Assembly (NCBI GenBank): GCA_963790475.1
Contig: CAWBOS010000006.1
Location: forward strand, 160,001-224,000
Origin: an uncultured delta proteobacterium
GTDB lineage: Bacteria > Desulfobacterota > RBG-13-43-22
DNA length: 64,000 nt
Direction: 5' to 3'
The notes under the pieces are model-generated. The model was not told where the DNA came from. It ran no database searches and saw nothing but the letters and a program-made list of their open reading frames with translations. The position numbers were made by a program, and so were the translations under genes. Below are positions 3,364 to 45,138 of the stretch, piece by piece (position 1 is the stretch's first letter; each line of letters starts with the position of its first letter).

Positions 3364-4227
3364 ATGGCTGAAGAATTCTGGAGATGGACGGAATCCCGGT
3401 GGACCGCACCGGATAAGGATTGGAATTCGGCCAAGATTATAACCGCCGGAGTGGATGTCGGTTCGGTGAGTTCACAGGCCGTTATTATGACCGACGGAGA
3501 ATTATATGCCTACAGCAATATGAGAACCGGTTCGGACAGCCCGAACAGCGCCATTAAGGCCATGAACAGGGCCTTGGAAGGAACCGGACTGACCTTGGAA
3601 AAAGTCCAATATATCGTCGGTACCGGCTACGGCCGGGTTAATGTCCCTTTTTCACAGCGGGCCATTACTGAGATTGCCTGCCACGGACGGGGGGCCAATT
3701 TTTTGTACGGTCCGACCGTGCGGACCGTTTTGGATATGGGGGGGCAGGATTGCAAGGCCATTCATATCGATGAAAAAGGAAAGGTCACCAATTTTCTAAT
3801 GAACGACAAATGTGCTGCCGGAACCGGACGGGGTCTGGAGGTCTTTGCCGATCTACTGGGGGTCTCGATCAATGAAATCGGAGAGCTTTCCCTGAAAGTA
3901 GAAGAAGAACCCCCCTCAGTGAGCAGCACCTGTGTGGTCTTTGCCAAATCAGAAGCCTCGGGATTATTACGGGAAGGCTGGCCAAAAGAAAGGGTCATCG
4001 CCGCTTACAGTTCGGCCATGGCCCATCGGGTGTTCACGCTGCTGGAACGGATCGGGATAGAGCCTGATTTTGCCATCACCGGAGGAATCGCCAAGAATAT
4101 AGGCGTGGTTTCCCGGCTGGAAAAGGAATTGAAGCTCAAGGCCTTAAGGCCAAAGTTTGACACCCAGATCGCCGGCGCGGTCGGGGCGGCACTGCTTGCC
4201 AAGGACCTGGCGGAAAAGGGGAAGTAA
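3364..4227 (+). CDS. bzdQ: Benzoyl-CoA reductase bzd-type Q subunit
   Basis: N-terminus MAEEFWRWTESRW, GVDVGSVSSQ, GTGYGR, DMGGQDCK, NDKCAAGTG; ATG 3364 after GGGGAG. Confidence 0.85.
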   Translation: MAEEFWRWTESRWTAPDKDWNSAKIITAGVDVGSVSSQAVIMTDGELYAYSNMRTGSDSPNSAIKAMNRALEGTGLTLEKVQYIVGTGYGRVNVPFSQRAITEIACHGRGANFLYGPTVRTVLDMGGQDCKAIHIDEKGKVTNFLMNDKCAAGTGRGLEVFADLLGVSINEIGELSLKVEEEPPSVSSTCVVFAKSEASGLLREGWPKERVIAAYSSAMAHRVFTLLERIGIEPDFAITGGIAKNIGVVSRLEKELKLKALRPKFDTQIAGAVGAALLAKDLAEKGK

Positions 4228-12440: not shown

Positions 12441-12664
12441 GGTTATTGGGTTGCTTGGGTCTATTGGGTTAAGGGCTGCCGGGTTAAGGGTTACTGGAGT
12501 TTGTTGAGTTGAGTTAGTTTAAAGCTGATAACTTTTAGGGGGAGCAAGAGAGAATTTTTTGGTTTGATCGGTTTAGAATCCAACAAACTCAAGAAACTCA
12601 ATAACTCAAGTAACCAAACTAACACAAGCAACTCAAGTTAATCAATTAACCCAACAAACACAAG
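12441..12664. repeat. 8/9-mer repeat hairpin (GGGTTATT/GAGTTTGTT array then AACTCAAG/AACCCAAC array)
   Basis: GT-rich degenerate array followed by complementary CA-rich array. Confidence 0.85.
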
Positions 12665-13966: not shown

Positions 13967-14147
13967 GTTTATTGAGTTCATTGAGTTTGTTGGGTTCATT
14001 GAGTTACTTAAGTTGCTTGTGTTTTTGACTTTCATATCCCTGAACCCTATAAGGCAATGAACCCCAATAAACCCAATAAACCCAAAAGACCCAACAAACC
14101 AAACAGAAATGACCAAACAGACTAAATGACAAGACAAACTAAACAGA
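13967..14147. repeat. 9-mer repeat hairpin (GTTTATTGA-type then ACCCAATAA/ACCAAACAG-type)
   Basis: gtttattga gttcattga gtttgttgg gttcattga ... aacccaata aacccaaaa gacccaaca .. gaccaaaca gactaaat. Confidence 0.88.
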
Positions 14148-21066: not shown

Positions 21067-21432
21067 ATGACCAAAATTATTCGCTTTGAAAATCTGGATT
21101 GCTGGCAACAAGCCCGGAGATTGGTCAAGGAGATCTATAAGATTTCTAAAGGAAAAGCATTTTCAAAAGATTTCAGGTTGGTTGGGCAAATCCAAGGATC
21201 AGCAATTTCTGTAATGGCCAATATTGCTGAAGGGTTTATCCGTAAGTCGGATAAAGAGTTTATCCAATTCTTATTCATCGCTCTTTCATCTGCTGCTGAG
21301 GTTCAAAGTCATTTATATGTTGCCTTGGATCAAGACTATATCCGTGATGAGGAATTTAATACATTATATAAGCAGACTGAAGTAACAGCAAAAATGATTT
21401 CCGGATTGATCAAGTATCTCCGAAAAAAATAA
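21067..21432 (+). CDS. Four-helix-bundle protein (23S rRNA IVP/Avd-like family)
   Basis: FENLDCWQ..QIQGSAISVMANIAEG..FIQFLFIALSSAAEVQSHL. Confidence 0.9.
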   Translation: MTKIIRFENLDCWQQARRLVKEIYKISKGKAFSKDFRLVGQIQGSAISVMANIAEGFIRKSDKEFIQFLFIALSSAAEVQSHLYVALDQDYIRDEEFNTLYKQTEVTAKMISGLIKYLRKK

Positions 21433-22867: not shown

Positions 22868-23236
22868 GTGGAATTTGAGAATTTAGAGGTTTGGAAAAGA
22901 GCGGTAAGACTGAGTGCCAATATATACAAAGAATTGGCTATGCTAAAGGATTTTGGTTTTCGCGATCAGATAACTCGGGCAGGATTATCCGTCCCAAGTA
23001 ATATTGCCGAAGGATTTGAGCGAGGGTCACAGAAAGAGTGCGTTGTATTTCTATCCTATGCCAAGGGATCCTTAGGGGAGTTGAGGACTCAGATCTATAT
23101 CGGAATGGCCATCGGCTATATTGACCAGGTTACCGGAAATGAATGGATCAAAGAAGCAAAAGAACTTGCCTCCATGTTGGGGGGACTTATAAAGACCAAA
23201 CGTAATTTTATCCAAACACAATCCAAAAGCAAATGA
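22868..23236 (+). CDS. Four-helix-bundle protein (23S rRNA IVP/Avd-like family)
   Basis: FENLEVWK..DQITRAGLSVPSNIAEGFER..FLSYAKGSLGELRTQ. Confidence 0.92.
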   Translation: MEFENLEVWKRAVRLSANIYKELAMLKDFGFRDQITRAGLSVPSNIAEGFERGSQKECVVFLSYAKGSLGELRTQIYIGMAIGYIDQVTGNEWIKEAKELASMLGGLIKTKRNFIQTQSKSK

Positions 23237-23249
23237 ATATGGCATTTTC

Positions 23250-23365
23250 ACCCTTTATCCTCGATCCTTTCTCCTTTATCCTAGAACCTCGCTCCTCAAA
23301 CCTGGTCAAACTCAACAAACCCAACCAATCCACCCAATCAGCTATCAGCAATGAGCCATGAGCTA
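23250..23365 (+). repeat. Right arm 7-mer array (NNNNCCT) followed by 9-mer and AGCTATG-type units
   Basis: ttatcct cgatcct ttctcct ttatcct agaacct cgctcct caaacct; then aactcaaca aacccaacc; then agctatc agcaatg agccatg agcta. Confidence 0.85.
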
Positions 23366-24391
23366 AGGATTATTAATCCGTTAGATATTCCCGACTGGGA
23401 TGAGCAGGTTCTTCGGCTCCCTAATTATTCTTTCTTCCACTCCGCAGCGTGGGCAAAGGTCCTTTCAGAAGCATATAAATACAAACCGACCTATTTTACC
23501 TTCTTTGAAGATAATAAGCTGACCGCTCTGTTACCCGCGATGGATGTAAACAGCATATTGACGGGCCACAGAGGAATATCACTCCCCTTCACTGATTTTT
23601 GTGAACCTATTGCAGATAGTAACCTGAATTTTCGGACTTTATTTGAACATGCAGTATCCCATGGGAAAAAAAGCGGATGGAAGTATATCGAACTTCGTGG
23701 TGGTCAGACTTTTTTACCGGACACTGTTCCATCCCAAACTTTTTTAGCCCATACCATGGACCTCTTTCCTGATGAAAAAAAAATAATGAACAACTTTCGG
23801 GACAGTACCAGGCGTAATATAAAGAAGGCTATCACCGAGGGGGTGACGGTAAACATCCTCAATACAAGGGAAGCGGTAAAAGAGTTTTGCAGATTGAACT
23901 GTCTTACCAGAAAGGAGCATGGACTGCCACCGCAGCCAGGAAAGTTTTTTCAGGCAATATATAAACACATTATATCAAAAGGGCATGGATTTGTGGCTCT
24001 TGCCTATTTTCAAGGAAAGGCCATAGCGGGAAATATCTATTTTCATTTTGGTGAAAAAGCGGTTTATAAATATGGAGCCTCAAACAAAACCTGGCAGCAT
24101 TTAAGAGCCAGCAACCTTGTGATGTGGGAGGCAATTAGGTGGTATTGTCGAAAGGGGTGTGAACAAATGCATTTCGGAAGAACCGAAGAGGATCATCAGG
24201 GGCTAAGACAATTCAAGATGGGCTGGGGGGTGCAGGAACATGCTGTCAGCTATTCAAAATATGATTTGCGAAAAGGCAATTTTGTTAAGCAAAAAAACAA
24301 GGTTACATTTTTTCAAAATTCAATTTTTTGCAGGATGCCCGTTCCTTTATTGAAAATTACCGGTTCTTTGTTTTATGGACACATGGCATAA
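23351..24391 (+). CDS. FemAB-like GNAT protein (XrtA/PEP-CTERM-associated type)
   Basis: SLPFTDFC, RRNIKKA, HGLPPQP, YKYGAS, FGRT..GLRQFKMGWG. Confidence 0.85.
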   Translation: MSHELRIINPLDIPDWDEQVLRLPNYSFFHSAAWAKVLSEAYKYKPTYFTFFEDNKLTALLPAMDVNSILTGHRGISLPFTDFCEPIADSNLNFRTLFEHAVSHGKKSGWKYIELRGGQTFLPDTVPSQTFLAHTMDLFPDEKKIMNNFRDSTRRNIKKAITEGVTVNILNTREAVKEFCRLNCLTRKEHGLPPQPGKFFQAIYKHIISKGHGFVALAYFQGKAIAGNIYFHFGEKAVYKYGASNKTWQHLRASNLVMWEAIRWYCRKGCEQMHFGRTEEDHQGLRQFKMGWGVQEHAVSYSKYDLRKGNFVKQKNKVTFFQNSIFCRMPVPLLKITGSLFYGHMA

Positions 24392-37526: not shown

Positions 37527-38837
37527 ATGAACTCAATAATTTCTCTCAAGACCGGGGTCTGGTACGGCGATAGGCAAATTAATTTGCCCATCCCCTCGAG
37601 TTGGGATGTAAAGGTCCTTTGGCCGGCCACCCCCCCCCCTCTGACGGCGGAAGAGTTATTGAGCACCCTGGAACATCCAATAGGCAAAGCGAGGCTGACT
37701 GAAGTCTGCCGGAAGAAATCCCGACCCTTGATTCTCGTTGATGACCTGAACCGCCCTACCCCCACAGCCGAAATCATGCCGCATTTGCTAAAAATGATGA
37801 GCACGGTCGGCATCCCCTCCGAAGCGATCAAAATCCTCATGGCTACCGGTACGCATGGCCAACCGGAACCAGACGCTGTTCTCAAAAAGGTAGACGCAGC
37901 ATTCGCTAACGATCAACTACAGGTACACAACTGCTTTGCGGACACTATAAAAATTGGGGTTACCTCCTCCGGTATACCTGTATTTGTGAACAAAATCGTC
38001 ATGGAAAGCGATGTGGTCATTGGCATCAGCGGAATTTACCCCAACCACACCGCCGGTTTTGGCGGCGGGTCCAAGCTTGCTCTAGGCGTGTTGGGGATTC
38101 AAACCATCTACCATTTGCACTTTCGTCACAAGTCGGCCGGCTGGGGGAATTTCTTTCCGGAGATGGGTTTCCGACGGGATCTGGATGAAATCGCCAGAAT
38201 GATTGGTATGGAATTTAATATCTCCCTGATTATTGACGCTAACCGGCAGATCGTTCGGATGTATTGTGGCGACCCAATCGCCTACTTCCCTCGAGCAGTT
38301 TTATATTACCAGCAGGTGTTCCGTACCCAGCTCCCCGGCGATGCAGATGTCGTCATCTCAAATGCCTACCCCAACGATTGTTCACTCACATTTACGCGGA
38401 TGAAGGGATTTGTTCCGCTTGCTCTGTGCACCCCAGCAGCGACTAGAATTGCTATTTCTGCATGTCCTGAGGGGCTAGGGCTTCATAATATCTGGCCGTT
38501 TGTAAACGTGCCGCCGCGTCACCGGTTGAAACATATCCTGCGGGTTTTATCCGTCCTGACTTTAAAAGAAATCCTGGTGAGGGGGTTTCGCACCGCAATC
38601 TCCCCACTCACGAAAAGGCTTACCAACCGGCAGAAGTCAGGGAACCTAAAGGCGCTCCAATCCGTATGGCTGTACCAGACGTGCGGCTCAGAAATTAATC
38701 TACCAGCAAATGTGCCCGGAATCCATATCACATCGGATTGGCAAAAAATCCTTGAGGCTGTTCTTCGAGAACAGTCGAATCGAAATCAGCTCAAGGTTTT
38801 GGTTTATCCGTGCGCTTTTCTTCAACTGTTCGAATAA
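37527..38837 (+). CDS. LarA-family (nickel-pincer) hydroxyacid racemase/epimerase
   Basis: DDLNRPTP, ATGTH, AGFGGGSK, MKG motifs. Confidence 0.8.
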   Translation: MNSIISLKTGVWYGDRQINLPIPSSWDVKVLWPATPPPLTAEELLSTLEHPIGKARLTEVCRKKSRPLILVDDLNRPTPTAEIMPHLLKMMSTVGIPSEAIKILMATGTHGQPEPDAVLKKVDAAFANDQLQVHNCFADTIKIGVTSSGIPVFVNKIVMESDVVIGISGIYPNHTAGFGGGSKLALGVLGIQTIYHLHFRHKSAGWGNFFPEMGFRRDLDEIARMIGMEFNISLIIDANRQIVRMYCGDPIAYFPRAVLYYQQVFRTQLPGDADVVISNAYPNDCSLTFTRMKGFVPLALCTPAATRIAISACPEGLGLHNIWPFVNVPPRHRLKHILRVLSVLTLKEILVRGFRTAISPLTKRLTNRQKSGNLKALQSVWLYQTCGSEINLPANVPGIHITSDWQKILEAVLREQSNRNQLKVLVYPCAFLQLFE

Positions 38838-38856
38838 TAATTTCTCCCGGAGGATT

Positions 38857-41001
38857 ATGACTATGAGAGTTTGTATGATTGCATATACCTTCTATGAAAA
38901 CGACAATCGAGTAAGACGATATGCCGATGCCTTGGTAAAAAGAGGGGATCATGTAGATGTGGTAGCGTTGCGAAATCCCGAGTTCGCAGAGCAGGAGAAC
39001 TTTCATGGAGTTAACATATACCACATTCAAGCAAGAATCCAAAATGAGAAGCATAAGCTGTTGTATTTGGCAAAGCTACTACTTTTTCTGGTTAACTCCG
39101 GAATATTTGTCACAAAGCAACACTTGAAAAATCCATATGATGTGCTTCATATCCATAATGTCCCGGACTTCTTGGTATTTTCCGGTTTGATACCAAAGCT
39201 AAAGGGTGCAAAAGTCATTCTCGATATTCATGACATAGTCCCTGAGTTTTACGCCTCCAAATTCAAAGTCTCCAAGGATTCTCTGGTTTGTAAAGTGTTG
39301 ATGCAGATCGAGAAACTGTCGATAGCTTTTTCGGACCACGTAATTATCTCCAATCATATTTGGGAGCAAAGACTCCTCTCACGATCTATCTCGAAAGAGA
39401 AGTGTTCCGTTTTTCTCAATTACCCGGACCCCGTACTATTCTATCCGCGGAAAGTGGAGAGAGAGGCGAATAAACTAATTTTCTTATACCCCGGAACCTT
39501 GGCGTGGCACCAGGGTTTGGACGTTGCTATCAAGGCATTTGCTCTGGTAAGAGACGAGCTTGAATCTGCTGAAATGCATGTCTATGGTGGTGGCCCTGAA
39601 AGGAGAAGACTCGAGCTACTCGCTACTGAACTTGGGATAAGTCGACAAGTTGTTTTCAAGGGATCATTTCCTATAGATGAGATTGTCGATGTTATGGCGA
39701 GGTCGAACATTGGGGTGGTCCCTAAAAGAAATGATTCGTTTGGAGGGGAGGCTTTTAGCACAAAGATATTTGAGTTCATGTCTCTCGGGGTTCCCGTGAT
39801 TGCTTCGAGGACTAGGATCGACTCTTACTATTTCGATAAGTCTGTCATCCAGTTCTTCGAGCCGGGAGACGAGAATGATTTGGCGAGATGTATGATTCTG
39901 CTCGGAAAAAACAAGGGGCTACGAGATGGCATCGCAGACCGGGCCCTGGAATTTATCAAGCAATACTCGTGGGATAAAAAGAAACAAGCCTATTTTGAGT
40001 TGGTGGATGGGTTGGTCCGGAAGAATGGCGTTGTGAAAACCTCTGGGGGACAGGCAACTAGTAAGCTGCTGGGGGTTTATTATTTGATGAAACCATTCAT
40101 ACCGAGGCGCCTGCAGATCCAGATACGGAGAAGGGTTGCGTCACGAAAGAGTATCTCCAATCGACATATTTGGCCCATTAACGAGCAAACGTCAAAAAAA
40201 CCTGAAGCATGGCGCGGGTGGCCCGATGACAAACGTTTTGCCCTGGTCCTTACCCACGACGTGGAAGGAGCCAAGGGTGTCCCGAATTGTCTCAGGTTGG
40301 CCGATCTCGAGCAAGATCTTGGCTACCGGTCTTCTTTTAACTTCGTGGCCCTGGACTACGAGATTTCGAAGGAATTGATGGATAGTTTACGGGCTCGGGG
40401 GTTCGAGATTGGCCTGCACGGTCTCTATCATCATGGAAATTTGTTCAAATCCAGAAGGGCTTTTCAAAAGCAAGTTCCTCGGATTAATGAATTTTTGAAG
40501 AAATGGAATGCGGCGGGCTTCAGATCCCCCAGTATGTATCATAATTTGGAATGGATCTGTGATTTGGATATTGAGTATGATGCCTCCACATTCGATACGG
40601 ACCCATTCGAACCTCAACCGGACAGCGCGGGTACGATTTATCCGTTTATCATATCAAGGAACGGATCGAAAAGCGGATTCGTGGAGCTGCCCTATACACT
40701 TCCGCAAGACCATCTGTTGTATGTGGTGATGAGAGAAAGAACTCCCTCAATCTGGAAGCAAAAACTGGATTGGATTGCCGAGAAAGGCGGTCTGGCCTTA
40801 ATAATTACTCATCCTGATTACATAGACTTCGCTGATAAGAGAAAGCCTGTGGATGCCTATCCGGCCAATTATTATGTTGAATTTCTCCAATATATCAAAG
40901 ACCGGTACGATGGGCAGTACTGGCATGCGCTTCCGAAAGATGTCGCCCGGTTCATACGGGAATCAGAAACAGCAGCTCAGTCGTCTATAAATGGAAAATA
41001 A
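38857..41001 (+). CDS. GT4 glycosyltransferase fused to a NodB-type deacetylase-like domain
   Basis: DNRVRR, HNVPD, LDIHD, STKIFEFM; C-terminal LTHDVE, EIGLHG, GFRSP, ITHPDY. Confidence 0.85.
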   Translation: MTMRVCMIAYTFYENDNRVRRYADALVKRGDHVDVVALRNPEFAEQENFHGVNIYHIQARIQNEKHKLLYLAKLLLFLVNSGIFVTKQHLKNPYDVLHIHNVPDFLVFSGLIPKLKGAKVILDIHDIVPEFYASKFKVSKDSLVCKVLMQIEKLSIAFSDHVIISNHIWEQRLLSRSISKEKCSVFLNYPDPVLFYPRKVEREANKLIFLYPGTLAWHQGLDVAIKAFALVRDELESAEMHVYGGGPERRRLELLATELGISRQVVFKGSFPIDEIVDVMARSNIGVVPKRNDSFGGEAFSTKIFEFMSLGVPVIASRTRIDSYYFDKSVIQFFEPGDENDLARCMILLGKNKGLRDGIADRALEFIKQYSWDKKKQAYFELVDGLVRKNGVVKTSGGQATSKLLGVYYLMKPFIPRRLQIQIRRRVASRKSISNRHIWPINEQTSKKPEAWRGWPDDKRFALVLTHDVEGAKGVPNCLRLADLEQDLGYRSSFNFVALDYEISKELMDSLRARGFEIGLHGLYHHGNLFKSRRAFQKQVPRINEFLKKWNAAGFRSPSMYHNLEWICDLDIEYDASTFDTDPFEPQPDSAGTIYPFIISRNGSKSGFVELPYTLPQDHLLYVVMRERTPSIWKQKLDWIAEKGGLALIITHPDYIDFADKRKPVDAYPANYYVEFLQYIKDRYDGQYWHALPKDVARFIRESETAAQSSINGK

Positions 41002-41066: not shown

Positions 41067-41432
41067 ATGAAGGAAACCGAGGGGAAGAACAAGAAGTACG
41101 ATTTAGAGGACCGGACTTTTGAATTTGCACGAGAGGTTATTGCTTTTGTCAATAAACTGAAAAAAACGTTGGCGAATATTGAAATTGGAAAACAACTGAT
41201 CCGGGCCGCCGGTTCAGTTGGAGCAAATTATATCGAGGCAAATGAAGGGCTGAGCAGGAAGGATTTCATTATGAGAATAAAGATCTGCCGAAAGGAAGCC
41301 AAGGAAGCCGGATACTGGATTCGTCTGATCGATTGCGAAGAAGGTCTGGAAAGTTCTAGAGAAAAGTTGGTGAGCGAAAGCAAAGAGTTAACTAAAATAT
41401 TTGGAGCAATAATTATTAGATGCAAATCCTAA
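41067..41432 (+). CDS. Four-helix-bundle protein (23S rRNA IVP/Avd-like family)
   Basis: YDLEDRTFEFA..QLIRAAGSVGANYIEANE..ICRKEAKEAGYW. Confidence 0.92.
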   Translation: MKETEGKNKKYDLEDRTFEFAREVIAFVNKLKKTLANIEIGKQLIRAAGSVGANYIEANEGLSRKDFIMRIKICRKEAKEAGYWIRLIDCEEGLESSREKLVSESKELTKIFGAIIIRCKS

Positions 41433-41466
41433 ATCGCGAATTCTAAACTCAAAATAAGGATTTCTT

Positions 41467-41706
41467 ATGATTAGAAATTATACCGCTAAATATATAAAAA
41501 TTAGCAAAGGGTATATGGGACAGTTAATTGAGTGGCCGGAGGTCATCACTGAAGGCCGGGATATTGAAGAATGCCGTCGAATGCTGCGGGATGCCCTAAA
41601 ACAAATGGTTTTAGCCTATAAGCAGATACATAAAGAAATTCCCATTGGCGACGGTTTGATCGAACAGCTCCCCGTGGATATCCAAGATGTCTATCAAACG
41701 GCGTGA
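41467..41706 (+). CDS. hicB: HicB-family antitoxin (short)
   Basis: YMGQLIEWPEVITEGRDIEECRRMLRDAL. Confidence 0.85.
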   Translation: MIRNYTAKYIKISKGYMGQLIEWPEVITEGRDIEECRRMLRDALKQMVLAYKQIHKEIPIGDGLIEQLPVDIQDVYQTA

Positions 41707-41875
41707 CCTAATCAAATATCTTGAAGAAAATGGATTTCGTTTTATAAGAGAAGGTGGGAGTCATTCTATCTATTCGAATGAGAACAAAACCATCCCGGTT
41801 AAAAGGCATCGTTCTTTAGATAGAATAACCGCCAATGAACTTTGCAAGCAAGCCGGAATAATCCCAAAATTTTGA
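41687..41875 (+). CDS. hicA: HicA-family toxin
   Basis: KRRDLIKYLEENGF..REGGSHSIY..PVKRH..CKQAGI. Confidence 0.88.
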   Translation: MSIKRRDLIKYLEENGFRFIREGGSHSIYSNENKTIPVKRHRSLDRITANELCKQAGIIPKF

Positions 41876-41961
41876 TGTCAGATTTTTGGATTGGGGTATT
41901 TGAATATTAGTATGGTCTATTATTTTCGGATTTCGAATTTGGGATTTAGAGTTTGACCAGA

Positions 41962-43263
41962 ATGCGTCTCGATCGTCTATTAACCCTATATCTATTTGGT
42001 CCTCTGGCTCGCCTCCGCAAACCCAGGGGTCTGCGAATCCCCATCCTCATGTATCACAGTATTTCCGATGACCCGGAAACCGGCCATCCGTACTATTGGA
42101 TCAACACATCCCCGGCATGCTTCGCCGAACACATGAAATTTCTTTATGATAATGGATATCAGGTAATTCCCCTCTCAACCGCGGTCGAAATGATCCGGAT
42201 GGAAAAAACTAATTCTAAAATTCTAAATTTTAACCTCGAACCTCGAACCTCGAACCTCGAACCTGGATCGAACCTCGAACCTCGAACCTCGAACCCCGAA
42301 AAGGGATTAACCAACAAACCAAACAAACTTAACGAACTCAATAACCCAATAGACCCAATCAACCAGCCAACCAATCAATCCGATCAATTAAATGGACTGG
42401 ATAGACCAAACCAACAAAATAGACCCAATGAACTCAAGGAACCCGAAGAACCCAATGAACTCAACCAACCCAATAGACTCAAAGAACCAGAGAAACCCCG
42501 CTACGTGGTCTTAACCTTTGACGATGGCTATCTCGACTTCTACACCGAAGCCTTTCCCATCCTCCAGCAATACGGTTTCCACGCAACCGTGTTTCTTCCG
42601 ACGATCTTCATCGATGGGAAAAGACCAGGCCTTCGGGGTAAGGAGCACCTCAACTGGGATCAGGTTCGCGAACTTCGTACCGTCGGCATTACTATCGGCT
42701 CTCACACCTGCAGCCACCCACAGCTTTACGATTTGCCGTTAGATAAAATTGAGCAGGAACTCCACCGGTCAAAAGAATCAATCGAATTTCATCTGAATCA
42801 AACAACCAACAAAGAAGTTAAGCAATCAGCCCAGTCAACCAATAAGCCCAATAAACTAAATGAATCCTATGAGCTATCAGCTATGAGCTATAAGCCATTT
42901 CCACCCGATCACCCGATCACCCTGTCTTCCGTGGATTCTTTTTGTTATCCTTATAAATTTCCCGGGCAAAACAAAGCTTTTCGAACTTTGCTATCCGATT
43001 CCTTGAAGAAAACAGGCTATAACAACTGCGTTACGACGAGGATAGGATCATACAATACCGCGGAGGATATTTTGTGTATGAAACGGTTGCCTATGAATAG
43101 GGCCGACGACCATTGGCTTTTTCGTGCGAAGCTTCAGGGAGGCTATGATTGGCTTGCGTGTCTTCAATCCCTGACTAAAAAAACCAACAGGGGGAGCAGA
43201 GTTGGCCGTCCGGTAGGTCAAATGATCGAGAAAGTCCAAACAAAGGCAGGGGTAAGAGCATGA
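41962..43263 (+). CDS. Polysaccharide deacetylase (NodB/IcaB-like) with two long repeat-derived in-frame insertions
   Basis: PILMYHSI, LTFDDGY, IGSHTCSH, FCYPY; low-complexity inserts between conserved blocks. Confidence 0.88.
   Translation: MRLDRLLTLYLFGPLARLRKPRGLRIPILMYHSISDDPETGHPYYWINTSPACFAEHMKFLYDNGYQVIPLSTAVEMIRMEKTNSKILNFNLEPRTSNLEPGSNLEPRTSNPEKGLTNKPNKLNELNNPIDPINQPTNQSDQLNGLDRPNQQNRPNELKEPEEPNELNQPNRLKEPEKPRYVVLTFDDGYLDFYTEAFPILQQYGFHATVFLPTIFIDGKRPGLRGKEHLNWDQVRELRTVGITIGSHTCSHPQLYDLPLDKIEQELHRSKESIEFHLNQTTNKEVKQSAQSTNKPNKLNESYELSAMSYKPFPPDHPITLSSVDSFCYPYKFPGQNKAFRTLLSDSLKKTGYNNCVTTRIGSYNTAEDILCMKRLPMNRADDHWLFRAKLQGGYDWLACLQSLTKKTNRGSRVGRPVGQMIEKVQTKAGVRA
42208..42495 (+). repeat. 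In-frame stacked repeats: AATTCTA-type, AACCTCG x9 (7 perfect), then 9-mer array
   Basis: Directly visible; encodes NLEPRTS.. and NKPNKLNELN.. Confidence 0.92.
42795..42925 (+). repeat. Second in-frame stacked repeat insert (AATCAACC-like, AGCTATG, CACCCGAT units)
   Basis: tatgagc tatcagc tatgagc tataagc; cacccgat cacccgat caccctgt. Confidence 0.85.
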
Positions 43264-44126
43264 CTCCCGGATATGTCGTCATCACTCCCATCAGGGATGA
43301 GGAAGCCTACATAGAAAAGACCATCGACTCTATGGTTTCTCAAACAATTGCCCCAATGCAATGGATTATCGTTGACGATGGATCTACGGACGGTACCGGT
43401 GGGCTTATAGATAATGCGGCGAACCTTTACCCTTGGATTCTGTCAATCCATCGAGAGGATAGAGGATTTCGCAAGGCGGGTGGTGGGGTTATTGAGGCCT
43501 TTTACGCTGGTTATGCCGCACTCTCGTGTGAAGATTGGGATTTTGTCGTAAAACTGGACGGGGACCTGTCCTTCGAACCGGACTATTTTGAGAAGTGTTT
43601 TGCTATTTTCAGAACAGATCCCAAACTCGGGGTCGGTGGAGGCCATATCTATAACCTGATCGAAGGCAGATTGGAGCTGGAAAAACAACCACGCTTCCAT
43701 GTGCGAGGAGCTACGAAAATTTACAGGAGAACCTGTTGGGATGCAATAGGCAGTCTGCTTGCCGCACCCGGGTGGGACACCCTCGATGAGGTAAAGGCAA
43801 ATATGCTCGGCTGGACCAGCTACAGCTTCCCGGAGTTGAAGCTGACTCATCATCGGTACACAGGCGGTGCCGATGGCACCTGGCGAGACGCGGTTAAGAA
43901 CGGCCTTTCGGACTACATTTGTGGATACCACCCCTTATTTATGGCAATCAAATGCCTCAAGCGGCTCGGGGGAAAACCCTATCTGTTGGGATCATTGGGC
44001 CACGCCTACGGCTTTGGGAAGGGCTACCTTAAGGGGGTATCTCAAATCAATGACCCAGCGCTCATCAAATACCTGAGGGCGCAGCAGTTGAAGAGGCTTT
44101 GCCTGAAATCCAGTATCTGGACTTAG
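43260..44126 (+). CDS. Glycosyltransferase family 2
   Basis: VITPIRDE, VDDGSTD, KLDGD, GWDTLDE. Confidence 0.9.
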   Translation: MTPGYVVITPIRDEEAYIEKTIDSMVSQTIAPMQWIIVDDGSTDGTGGLIDNAANLYPWILSIHREDRGFRKAGGGVIEAFYAGYAALSCEDWDFVVKLDGDLSFEPDYFEKCFAIFRTDPKLGVGGGHIYNLIEGRLELEKQPRFHVRGATKIYRRTCWDAIGSLLAAPGWDTLDEVKANMLGWTSYSFPELKLTHHRYTGGADGTWRDAVKNGLSDYICGYHPLFMAIKCLKRLGGKPYLLGSLGHAYGFGKGYLKGVSQINDPALIKYLRAQQLKRLCLKSSIWT

Positions 44127-44163: not shown

Positions 44164-45138
44164 ATGGATTTATCAATAATCATCGTCAACTGGAATTCCG
44201 CGAACTACCTCCGGAAATGCCTTGAGACTGTATTCGCGAACATCCATGGCCTTGATTTCGAAGTTATTGTAGTCGATAATGCATCCTACGACGGATGCGG
44301 CGAAATACTCGAAACTTACTTCCCGACTGTCAAGTTTGTACAAAGTGCCAAGAATCTCGGGTTTGCAGGCGCCAATAATCTTGGCTTCAACCATTCGTCC
44401 GGAGAAAATCTCCTCTTCCTGAATCCGGATACTGAAGTTCTCGGCTCGGCAATCCAGGACATGCTTCATGTCCTCCGAACGATTCCCGACGCCGGAGCAG
44501 TGGGATGCAGGCTGCTGAATACGGATGGGTCTTTACAGACTACCTGCATCCAGCCGTTCCCAACCCTCCTAAACCAGATGCTGGACACAGATTTTCTGAT
44601 ACTTCGTTTCCCCAGTTGGAAAATTTGGGGCGTAAGGCCCCTTTTCTTCGGTTCGGACCATGCTGAAACTGTTGAGGTGGTGACCGGAGCCTGTTTGCTG
44701 GTAAGGCGAAGTGATTTTGAAAAAGCAGGGATATTCAGTTCCGATTATTTTATGTATGGGGAAGATATAGATCTATGTTTTAAACTGGTCAGGTCCGGTC
44801 AAAGGAATTATTACCAGGGAGGCGCATCGATTGTCCACCATGGGGGGAAGAGTGCGGATCAGGCGAGCTTCAGCCATTTCAATGCGGTCCATAAACGGGA
44901 TTCCGTTCGTATATTTTTCTGCAAATTCAGGGGCCCTTTCCAGGCCCACCTTTACACCTTCACCACCGGGTTATCTGCGGTCGCCCGGTTGATTGTGATC
45001 CTTTTGTCCAGTCCCGGGGCCTTCCTGACTCGGCGCAGGAAGCGCCTGGGGGTGACATTCAAAAAATGGATGACCGTCTTAAAGTGGTCCTTAAGGGGCT
45101 CCCGGCGGACCAACGAAATTTCTTTAAAAGGCGTTTAG
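44164..45138 (+). CDS. Glycosyltransferase family 2
   Basis: IIIVNWN, VDNASYD, FLNPD, FMYGEDIDLC. Confidence 0.9.
   Translation: MDLSIIIVNWNSANYLRKCLETVFANIHGLDFEVIVVDNASYDGCGEILETYFPTVKFVQSAKNLGFAGANNLGFNHSSGENLLFLNPDTEVLGSAIQDMLHVLRTIPDAGAVGCRLLNTDGSLQTTCIQPFPTLLNQMLDTDFLILRFPSWKIWGVRPLFFGSDHAETVEVVTGACLLVRRSDFEKAGIFSSDYFMYGEDIDLCFKLVRSGQRNYYQGGASIVHHGGKSADQASFSHFNAVHKRDSVRIFFCKFRGPFQAHLYTFTTGLSAVARLIVILLSSPGAFLTRRRKRLGVTFKKWMTVLKWSLRGSRRTNEISLKGV

Follow-up and report, generated by a model that had tools for sequence, protein, structure and literature searches.

The intervening sequences (IVS) of 23S rRNA go together with open reading frames (ORFs) for the PF05635 'IVS protein', a stem enclosing the ORF being the IVS architecture, and in Plasmodium low-complexity inserts occupy the surface loops of conserved proteins. 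Also close to the present case are certain heptamer repeats of bacteria, and the available portions of the respective reports describe TAACTGA as an over-represented heptamer in marine Beggiatoaceae (PMC4679880), GGGAATC heptamer repeats in Xanthomonas and Nostoc (PMC4692102) and four-heptamer GGACCGG elements in Geobacter metallireducens (PMC2700814). In the Beggiatoaceae, according to the accessible part of that account, the forward repeats carry stop codons and ORFs tolerate the reverse orientation only (PMC4679880). Here we consider a predicted polysaccharide deacetylase gene in a 64,000-nucleotide stretch of the genome of an uncultured delta proteobacterium (contig CAWBOS010000006.1, positions 160,001 to 224,000; this whole stretch is hereafter called the window, and positions are counted within it). 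The frame of this gene stays open and stop-free through at least five tandem-repeat families, which are stacked in two helix-to-strand loops of the encoded enzyme and belong to a repeat system that extends across the 6.34 Mb genome (about 49% G+C; labelled G000 below) and its genus.

Stacked repeats in two loops of a predicted deacetylase

The deacetylase ORF encodes 436 residues if initiated at TTG, or 433 residues from an ATG at 41962. Its match to PF01522 (residues 178-285; 76.8 bits against a cut-off of 23.1; E-value 1.8e-21) assigns it by profile to the CE4/NodB type and ends at the start of the second insert. When a profile built from 115 homologues was compared with the PDB, the Streptococcus pyogenes deacetylase PplD (6dq3_A) was recovered with an E-value of 2.1e-29, and a Foldseek search with the AlphaFold model likewise returned PplD (6dq3; E-value 6.6e-13; target TM-score 0.83-0.84), followed by PgaB, IcaB and BA0330. 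The protein is thus predicted to adopt a distorted beta/alpha-barrel like that of the solved CE4 members; in the AlphaFold 2 (AF2) model, which was built on the homologue alignment, the core has predicted local distance difference test (pLDDT) values above 90. TFDDG and HTCSH, which we take to be CE4 motif 1 with its catalytic and metal-binding Asp pair and motif 2 of the form H(S/T)xxH, are both intact, and the F, the two D and the two His do not vary across 115 aligned sequences. The protein has the appearance of a working CE4 enzyme, for which we predict de-N- or de-O-acetylase activity on a glycan.

The first insert, placed by the AF2 model between helix H71-89 and strand E180-186 with pLDDT values of 40-55, is about 90 residues longer than the same loop in the shortest homologues, the distance from MYH to TFDDG being 155 residues in this protein, with 60 as the minimum and 83 as the median among 112 homologues. 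It opens with an 8-mer array that is followed by a heptamer tract of nine recognisable AACCTCG units, namely four perfect units, one carrying a 4-nt GGAT interruption, three further perfect units and then AACCCCG. This tract encodes the peptide NLEPRTS, has a lag-7 identity of 0.87 (z 11.2), and ranks fourth in copy number among all rows reported for the genome by Tandem Repeats Finder (TRF). The remainder of the insert consists of degenerate 9-mers, with TRF rows spanning 42309-42488 that include ACCCAATGA in 5.8 copies and a 27-mer in 2.9 copies; it encodes PN(E/K)L-type triplets and has a lag-9 identity of 0.57 (z 7.6). On its own the insert folds weakly, with a minimum free energy (MFE) of -31 kcal/mol over 291 nt and a centroid of -11.

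The second insert, between helix H281-291 and strand E326-328 in the AF2 model (pLDDT 50-68), exceeds the corresponding loop of most homologues by about 40 residues; the distance from HxxxH to YPY is 76 residues here and 33-35 in 80 of the 112. Its 5' part (42799-42866) comprises AATCAACC-like units whose periodicity is weak (z 2.5 at both lag 8 and lag 9), and two arrays detected by TRF follow. Two segments of the enzyme core, taken as a control, have no lag above z 2.0. The original prediction, which had posited an intact deacetylase carrying about 140 residues of at least five in-frame repeat families with an open frame and intact catalytic motifs, is borne out by these observations, TRF and the loop lengths giving about 90 and 40 residues; for its trio of families in insert 2, CTATGAG (of the AGCTATG family) and CACCCGAT are firm arrays and the AATCAACC-like units are weakly periodic.

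For comparison with the rest of the genome we defined strong clusters as those of period 7-9 with at least three copies and at least 24 bp, and counted as lying within an ORF those with at least 70 codons of it on each side. Only 36 of the 477 strong clusters genome-wide lie inside long ORFs, and three of these 36 are in the deacetylase gene, from which we conclude that its repeats are more than a chance occurrence. Its 154-bp cluster is the sixth longest in the genome, and if merged with the adjoining 80-bp cluster (42211-42488) would surpass the longest (182 bp). With 16 strong clusters, a number reached by two of 98 bins, the window as a whole stands well above the mean of 4.7 for 64 kb.

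The manner in which the repeats are accommodated by the reading frame is informative. One of the three frames of insert 1 is open, and this is the frame joining the two conserved halves of the gene. A and C together make up 74% of insert 1 and 69% of insert 2 but 54% of the N-terminal portion of the ORF, and both inserts are C-rich (30-31% C, 12-13% G), as is typical in this genome of arrays that precede a start codon. In translations of perfect arrays, those of CTATGAG and AATTCTAA contain stops on both strands and those of AACCTCG none. In the gene, the second unit of the CTATGAG array reads CTATCAG exactly where a perfect copy would give an in-frame TGA, and the third copy of AATTCTAA is altered where a perfect one would give an in-frame TAA. 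Three copies of the common AACCTTG unit, read directly, give AAC CTT GAA CCT TGA with a stop included, so that arrays of this unit, being read as ..CCT TGA.., cannot code; AACCTCG is its stop-free one-base variant. As a heptamer array runs through all three codon phases, it is the strand of an array that matters and not its frame. The absence of the stop-creating forms is a signature of selection for translation through the repeats, and this purging of stops together with the preservation of frame speaks against excision of the inserts from the mRNA. We infer from the model that they are translated as floppy surface loops. Simulated gain or loss of one or two AACCTCG units introduces stops at residues 116-128, which fall before the catalytic domain, and a change of three units in either direction leaves the protein at full length; of the earlier expectation that gaining or losing a heptamer would phase-vary the gene, the truncation by changes of one or two units is therefore supported by computation.

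We then examined the same loops in the 120 best database relatives; the four anchor motifs are complete in 111 of them, the query not counted. The lengths of the two loops (MYH to TFDDG and HxxxH to YPY) range from 60 to 155 and from 33 to 112 among the 112 homologues, so the inserts are not invariant conserved linkers, as would have spoken against the initial claim. An extended loop 1, of at least 25 residues, is present in 62 of the 111, and loop 2 contains an insert of at least 15 residues in 23. Excess residue identity appears in loop 1 of the homologues at lags 7 (z 6.7) and 3 (z 5.6) and in loop 2 at lags 7 and 8 (z 4.3 and 4.6), which are the residue lags expected of translated 7-, 9- and 8-mers; the content of N, P, Q and S is raised 2.2-2.6-fold in these loops and that of aromatic residues is lowered. 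In P0004, P0007, P0009 and P0015 loop 1 begins with the 8-residue pattern of the query (NSKI..LNSK..), and in the alignment P0009 continues with NLDPRSSILDP at the position of NLEPRTSNLEP in the query. This suggests that the order of an 8-mer followed by an A(A/T)CCTCG-type 7-mer may have been inherited with changing copy numbers. Peptides of the form (E/K)PN(K/E) adjoining the YVVLTFDDG strand recur in P0051, P0053, P0064, P0085, P0091 and P0111.

In a broader family, 106 of 172 loci have all motifs, and these are mostly from Acidobacteriota, Verrucomicrobiota and Actinomycetota by record title. Among these 106, loop 1 exceeds 85 residues in three loci besides the query; loop 2 is 34 residues long in every locus listed except the query, the listed loci being those with long loops or flanking repeats. 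Across the same 106, at least 30 extra residues occur in two loci only, and the comparison of insert length with the density of flanking repeats (Spearman -0.02) is uninformative. No close orthologue of the deacetylase was found in the 13 congeners (best E-value 2.5e-12), and in the two genuine orthologues that the searched relatives contain (G018 and G021) the loops are free of tandem repeats. One of the three loci with a loop 1 above 85 residues, the metagenome orthologue L166, carries in its loop 1 (1355-1585) arrays of four 7/8-mer families, GAAAGCA, ATGGGACC, GGACCAC and CCGATCT, with a 33-nt block, AAAGCAGAAATTGGGAAAGCAGAAAGCAGAAAT, directly repeated on either side of GGGACC arrays; the families of this loop are also present in the 150 nt upstream of the gene.

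Repeat families of the genome and surroundings of the gene

The TRF rows of the genome peak at period 7 (715), followed by 9 (522) and 8 (341). There are 234 heptamer classes, and the largest are AACTCCG (61 arrays), AGCTATG (29) and AACCTTG (27). Arrays typically form both arms of intergenic hairpins, AGCTATG being common in such arms, and their strand is not random: of the arrays whose end lies no more than 45 nt ahead of a start codon, 95 have more C than G on the sense strand as compared with 44, and of those whose beginning lies no more than 45 nt behind a stop codon, 121 have more G than C as compared with 50. These units, over-represented, largely intergenic and strand-biased, constitute a lineage-specific heptamer system. 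Three tandem copies of AACTCCG were found in all 13 congeners, in one of seven other genomes of the family and in two of 20 genomes from other families, with no occurrence of the reversed control pattern except seven in G011; the unit is a genus trait.

The families of the deacetylase inserts have their place in this system. Within the window, four of the five insert families have relatives, and CACCCGAT has none there. No perfect AACCTCG tandem was found elsewhere in this genome, where related arrays are present; mixed AACCTCG/AACCTTG arms of intergenic hairpins occur in three of the 13 congeners. The 9-mer tract has minus-strand matches to intergenic arms at 12449-12471 and 13969-13996. The longest match of the insert repeats outside the gene is 25 nt at 100% (AGCTATG), and the heptamer tract has one of 61 nt at 85%. 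The claim that almost all of the arrays are C/A-rich arm versions of arrays located kilobases away thus holds for the strand, which follows the genome's rule, and for the four families with relatives in the window, and fails for CACCCGAT there and for the perfect AACCTCG array, which occurs in this gene only. Arrays of the AACCTCG type, as at 42229-42275, were also seen in sequencing runs X1, X3 and X4 on sediment or soil metagenome contigs, with summed depth up to 843 (X4); since the flanks of these contigs are many and different, pointing to other loci or organisms, this unit family is widespread beyond the deacetylase.

A C-rich arm following a PF05635 gene at 23252-23372 combines CCTTTAT/CCTCGAT 7-mers, an AACCTCG-like unit, AAAC(T/C)CAAC 9-mers and AGCTATC/ATGAGCT units. 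Its k-mer matches to inserts 1 and 2 are colinear and the alignment scores z 5.7 against shuffles, which hints at a shared order of families between this arm and the inserts.

Arrays also reside within other genes. Ten of the 12 array-spanning ORFs scanned have Pfam domains, and the arrays lie in linkers or inside domains; the families concerned include the histidine kinase HATPase_c, a Mur ligase, SpoU, CheR, CheA, AcrB, DegT, ABC, sedolisin and POR. The Mur-ligase-family gene is the most instructive of these, as its insert is a nested tandem-repeat hairpin of 210 nt in this genome, of the form (AGTTCGG)4 ... (AACTCCG)n (TCGTCAC)4, with arms that pair (-82.1 kcal/mol; z -2.9). The same site holds 63-339 nt in the 12 species of the genus in which both anchors were found, with the same families in differing copy numbers; 11 of the 12 inserts are a multiple of three and stop-free, and the copy in G008 is out of frame. 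Separately, an AcrB-family gene (G000:C10:803956-807277) is divided into two overlapping frames of 552 and 605 residues (overlap 805622-805770), which could reflect a frameshift, a pseudogene or an assembly error. We rejected this case as evidence for repeat-driven frameshifting, the break lying 60-200 nt downstream of an in-ORF (CGGTTGA)3.6 array and not at the array itself.

Table 1. Positions of the deacetylase, its inserts and motifs, neighbouring genes and arms, and the array-bearing Mur-ligase-family gene (window coordinates unless a contig is named)
Feature	Position	Strand	Basis
Polysaccharide deacetylase gene, CE4/NodB type; nearest PplD, PgaB, IcaB	41953..43263	+	ORF list, Pfam, PDB profile, Foldseek, AF2
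Insert 1, loop between helix ending ..AVEMIR and strand YVVLTFDDG	42199..42498 (aa 83-182)	+	alignment, AF2
AATTCTAA, 8-mer, 2.1 copies	42211-42227	+	Tandem Repeats Finder
AACCTCG heptamer array, 10.3 copies, 86% matches, score 103	42232-42300	+	Tandem Repeats Finder
Degenerate 9-mers AACCAAACA, AACCCAAT, ACCCAATGA/GAACTCAAG, with 18- and 27-mer super-units	42301..42498	+	Tandem Repeats Finder
Catalytic motif 1, TFDDG, five codons past the end of insert 1	42514-42528	+	codon view
Metal-binding motif HTCSH (H..xx..H)	42703-42717	+	sequence
Insert 2, loop between helix ..SKESIEFHL and strand VDSFCYPY	42799..42925 (aa 283-324)	+	alignment, AF2
CTATGAG, AGCTATG family, 4.1 copies	42867-42895	+	Tandem Repeats Finder
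CACCCGAT, perfect 8-mer, 2.6 copies	42902-42922	+	Tandem Repeats Finder
GT4 glycosyltransferase fusion	38710-41001		
PF05635 '23S rRNA IVS protein' gene	41067-41432 (match 41103-41399)		
C/A-rich arm just after the PF05635 gene, AATTCTAAA/TCGCGAA units like the opening of insert 1	41423..41454	+	
hicB (UPF0150)/hicA-like toxin-antitoxin pair	41467-41875		
G/T-rich repeat arm directly upstream of the deacetylase start	41924..41955	+	
GT2 genes	43260-44126, 44164-45138		
Mur-ligase-family gene (L174; orthologues L187-L197), in-frame nested tandem-repeat hairpin between M and C domains	G000:C12:1426510-1428093		

The gene neighborhood comprises glycosyltransferases, a toxin-antitoxin pair and a PF05635 gene (Table 1). 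In the 763-residue product of the ORF at 38710-41001, GT4 domains occupy residues 67-423, and the C-terminal half (about 430-763) has no Pfam match. The two repeat arms at 41423-41454 and 41924-41955 form an inverted repeat (I1) of 32 nt with 75% complementarity that encloses the hicB/hicA-like genes, and the predicted folds of the 561-nt stretch, MFE and centroid alike, are closed by its stem. More generally, eight of the 13 PF05635 matches in the genome lie between tandem-repeat inverted arms, G-rich on the 5' side and C-rich on the 3' side (z at least 5 against shuffles); examples are at 21088-21405, 22877-23182 and 41103-41399 in the window and at C13:465517-465828. Five of the 13 matches fall within C6:181-239 kb, and two directly follow the array-bearing CheR and CheA genes. 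The 23S rRNA gene (G000:C6:835590-838748) measures 3159 nt against a model of 2925 positions, and about 1265 nt from its 5' end has a 28-nt inverted repeat of 89% complementarity with 103 nt between the arms (L200:3236-3263 and 3367-3394). This extra hairpin is probably an intervening sequence; we rejected it as a repeat-built element, as it is not composed of tandem repeats.

Origin of the inserts

With moderate confidence we propose that lineage-wide repeat families seed the loops, that slippage alters them, and that selection retains frame-preserving, stop-free, hydrophilic inserts at two permissive loops. Arrays would arise in or be copied into coding DNA through template switching, gene conversion or nucleation on related sequence, and would then lengthen and shorten through replication slippage. 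Selection may retain those that keep the frame and encode a stop-free, hydrophilic and disordered peptide rich in N, P, Q, S and T, hence the C-rich strand and the stop-purged units. Such inserts might survive only where the fold tolerates them, namely in the two loops entering barrel strands opposite the catalytic residues. The 9-mers could change in copy number freely within the frame and so make up the bulk of the inserts, and the 7- and 8-mers would have to gain or lose three units at a time for the gene to remain on.

Several points weigh against this proposal. Inserts are never found in the barrel's remaining helix-to-strand loops, and that permissiveness alone decides which loops do is an assumption. 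The position of the two loops away from the active site is a prediction from barrel topology rather than from measured distances: since the catalytic residues follow the C-terminal ends of the strands, the order of secondary structures would have the inserts enter the face of the barrel opposite the active site. Copying from other loci is suggested solely by identity of the families; in the arm at 23252-23372, the native order of the blocks ranks fifth of 24 permutations, which is not significant. To account for the GGAT interruption within the heptamer tract, one or more compound or compensated events must be supposed. Finally, we rejected the candidate in which the upstream G/T-rich arm (41868-41955) and insert 1 would form one hairpin with the first 85 codons in its loop (z 0.3 against shuffles): the duplex between them reaches -43.6 kcal/mol against -36.4 ± 3.6 for shuffles, the direct and reversed controls are lower, and the effect is driven by composition. 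By this comparison of the upstream arm with insert 1 (z 0.3), the deacetylase inserts lack the paired arms expected of an IVS-like element.

A wider view, which we put forward tentatively as a possible but rather doubtful one, is that IVS-like nested repeat hairpin elements spread through the genus, carry PF05635 or toxin-antitoxin genes, and land in coding genes as long-lived in-frame inserts, the Mur-ligase gene of 12 species holding entire hairpins and the deacetylase C-rich arms. The deacetylase loops might then be a record of such landing and growth, with a function or copying at the nucleic-acid level, and not slippage alone, maintaining the arrays.

The sensitivity of the frame to the heptamer count raises the alternative that the tract is kept as a contingency locus, i.e. 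an on/off switch causing phase variation of a surface-polysaccharide enzyme. The truncation upon gain or loss of one or two units, with the frame kept at three, is what such a tract would do; the gene lies among glycosyltransferases in one of the two most repeat-dense 64-kb stretches of the genome; and the repeat region of one of the 12 Mur-ligase orthologues is out of frame. Heptanucleotide tracts inside genes have moreover been proposed as mediators of phase variation in Haemophilus influenzae, in the portion of the report available (PMC2651432). However, the tract has four and three perfect units separated by an interruption, which makes it short beside the 8-38 units given for H. influenzae tracts in the same portion (PMC2651432). 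The mass of the inserts consists mostly of 9-mers that cannot shift the frame, and like arrays occur in housekeeping genes and are mostly intergenic. We therefore regard this role as unlikely.

Nor do we think that slippage in situ sufficed, with arbitrary proto-repeats expanding in neutral linkers and no input from the genome's families, an explanation for which we see only a slim chance. It could draw on the (E/K)PN(K/E) peptides beside YVVLTFDDG in many homologues, as an ancestral proto-repeat of this kind could have seeded the 9-mer tract, and on two facts noted above, that the genome has no other perfect AACCTCG tandem and that a long identical donor sequence was not found. Against this, AGCTATG is the second of the 234 heptamer classes, AACCTCG is one base removed from the third and mixed with it in congeners, and the 9-mers match intergenic arms in the window. 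The units are genus-specific, and independent nucleation of exactly these appears unlikely. The statement in the original prediction that simple slippage is insufficient is upheld by this sharing of families across the genome and the genus.

The same prediction had gone on to propose a dedicated, polarised mechanism depositing arrays sequentially at two mutational hot spots and leaving a chronological record of acquisition, which we consider decidedly improbable. Homologues do carry inserts at the same two loops, all arrays have the C-rich orientation, and the perfection of the arrays varies from 100% to about 70% matches, as successive deposition might produce; but selection on the peptide and the fold predicts the orientation and the choice of loops equally well, so that a hot spot cannot be separated from permissive loops under selection, and a target-site signature was not seen. 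The gradients of perfection run in opposite directions, the most perfect arrays standing close to the 5' edge in insert 1 and at the 3' edge in insert 2, which disagrees with a chronological reading. The leading 8-mer/7-mer order, apparently inherited across homologues of about 50% identity and shared with one at about 49%, points to inheritance with change of copy number in place of a private acquisition record.

It is highly improbable that the repeats are mis-assembled or the gene a pseudogene left open by chance, for while no Logan contig spans the interior of insert 1, the segments 41900-41946 and 43169-43300 are uncovered in X1 and X2, the contamination of the genome bin is 9.68% and one AcrB-family gene elsewhere appears split by a frameshift, contigs of two runs (which may include the source sample) match 42481-42640, 42636-42927, 42738-42888 and 42897-43123 with zero differences and so take in the two junctions of insert 2 and, for insert 1, that on the 3' side, the sole open frame of the three is the one linking the conserved halves, and inserts occupy the same places in many homologues of other origin. 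An apparent joint from 42068 to 42520 in a single X3 contig was discarded as unreliable, there being 22 nt on its shorter side.

Significance and comparison with known systems

Nearly one third of the deacetylase is translated repeat DNA, and the two adjoining arrays of insert 1 would together be the genome's longest tract, and a coding one. The gene shows how much non-codon tandem repeat a bacterial enzyme can absorb with its frame and fold kept, and offers a natural experiment on the permissive loops of the CE4 barrel, on the editing of repeat units by selection through stop purging and choice of strand, and on the evolution of 7- and 8-mers in three-unit steps. Through its ties with the hairpin arms specific to the genus, with PF05635 genes and with the in-frame hairpins conserved in one housekeeping gene, it makes the nature and movement of bacterial heptamer families testable. 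In the literature, with subscription journals outside our coverage, we found no report of stacks of several 7-9-nt families inside catalytic-domain loops, of the same loops being used repeatedly among orthologues, or of PF05635 genes flanked by arms of tandem repeats.

The Plasmodium inserts resemble those described here in being hydrophilic, disordered and prone to slippage, in interrupting conserved domains at loops and in differing between orthologues. In the deacetylase, however, the units are of 7-9 nt rather than codon repeats and are shared with intergenic hairpin arms; drift of base composition is not the driver here, as the bacterium has about 49% G+C. With the 23S rRNA intervening sequences the likeness lies in the PF05635 loci of this genome, eight of 13 being set between repeat-built inverted arms, whereas the deacetylase inserts have no demonstrable partner arm, are not in rRNA, and must be translated and not excised.

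As in the contingency loci of H. influenzae, going by the available part of the report (PMC2651432), a non-triplet unit lies inside an ORF for surface carbohydrate and a change of one unit abolishes the product. The tract described here differs from those set out in that part of the report (PMC2651432) in being short, interrupted and situated amid frame-neutral 9-mers, in a free-living host of sediment or soil whose arrays are mostly non-coding; no variation in its length was observed among assembled contigs, none of which spans the tract. The lineage heptamers, as far as the available portions of those accounts describe them (PMC4679880, PMC4692102, PMC2700814), share with the present system units of 7 nt that are specific to a lineage, mostly intergenic near gene ends, and strand-biased, with a minority in ORFs. 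Relative to those portions, the system described here has hundreds of unit families rather than one; it has paired G-rich and C-rich hairpin arms with several families per tract; and its longest tract lies within a catalytic domain and not at the periphery of a protein, with the same two loops used across orthologues (PMC4679880, PMC4692102, PMC2700814).

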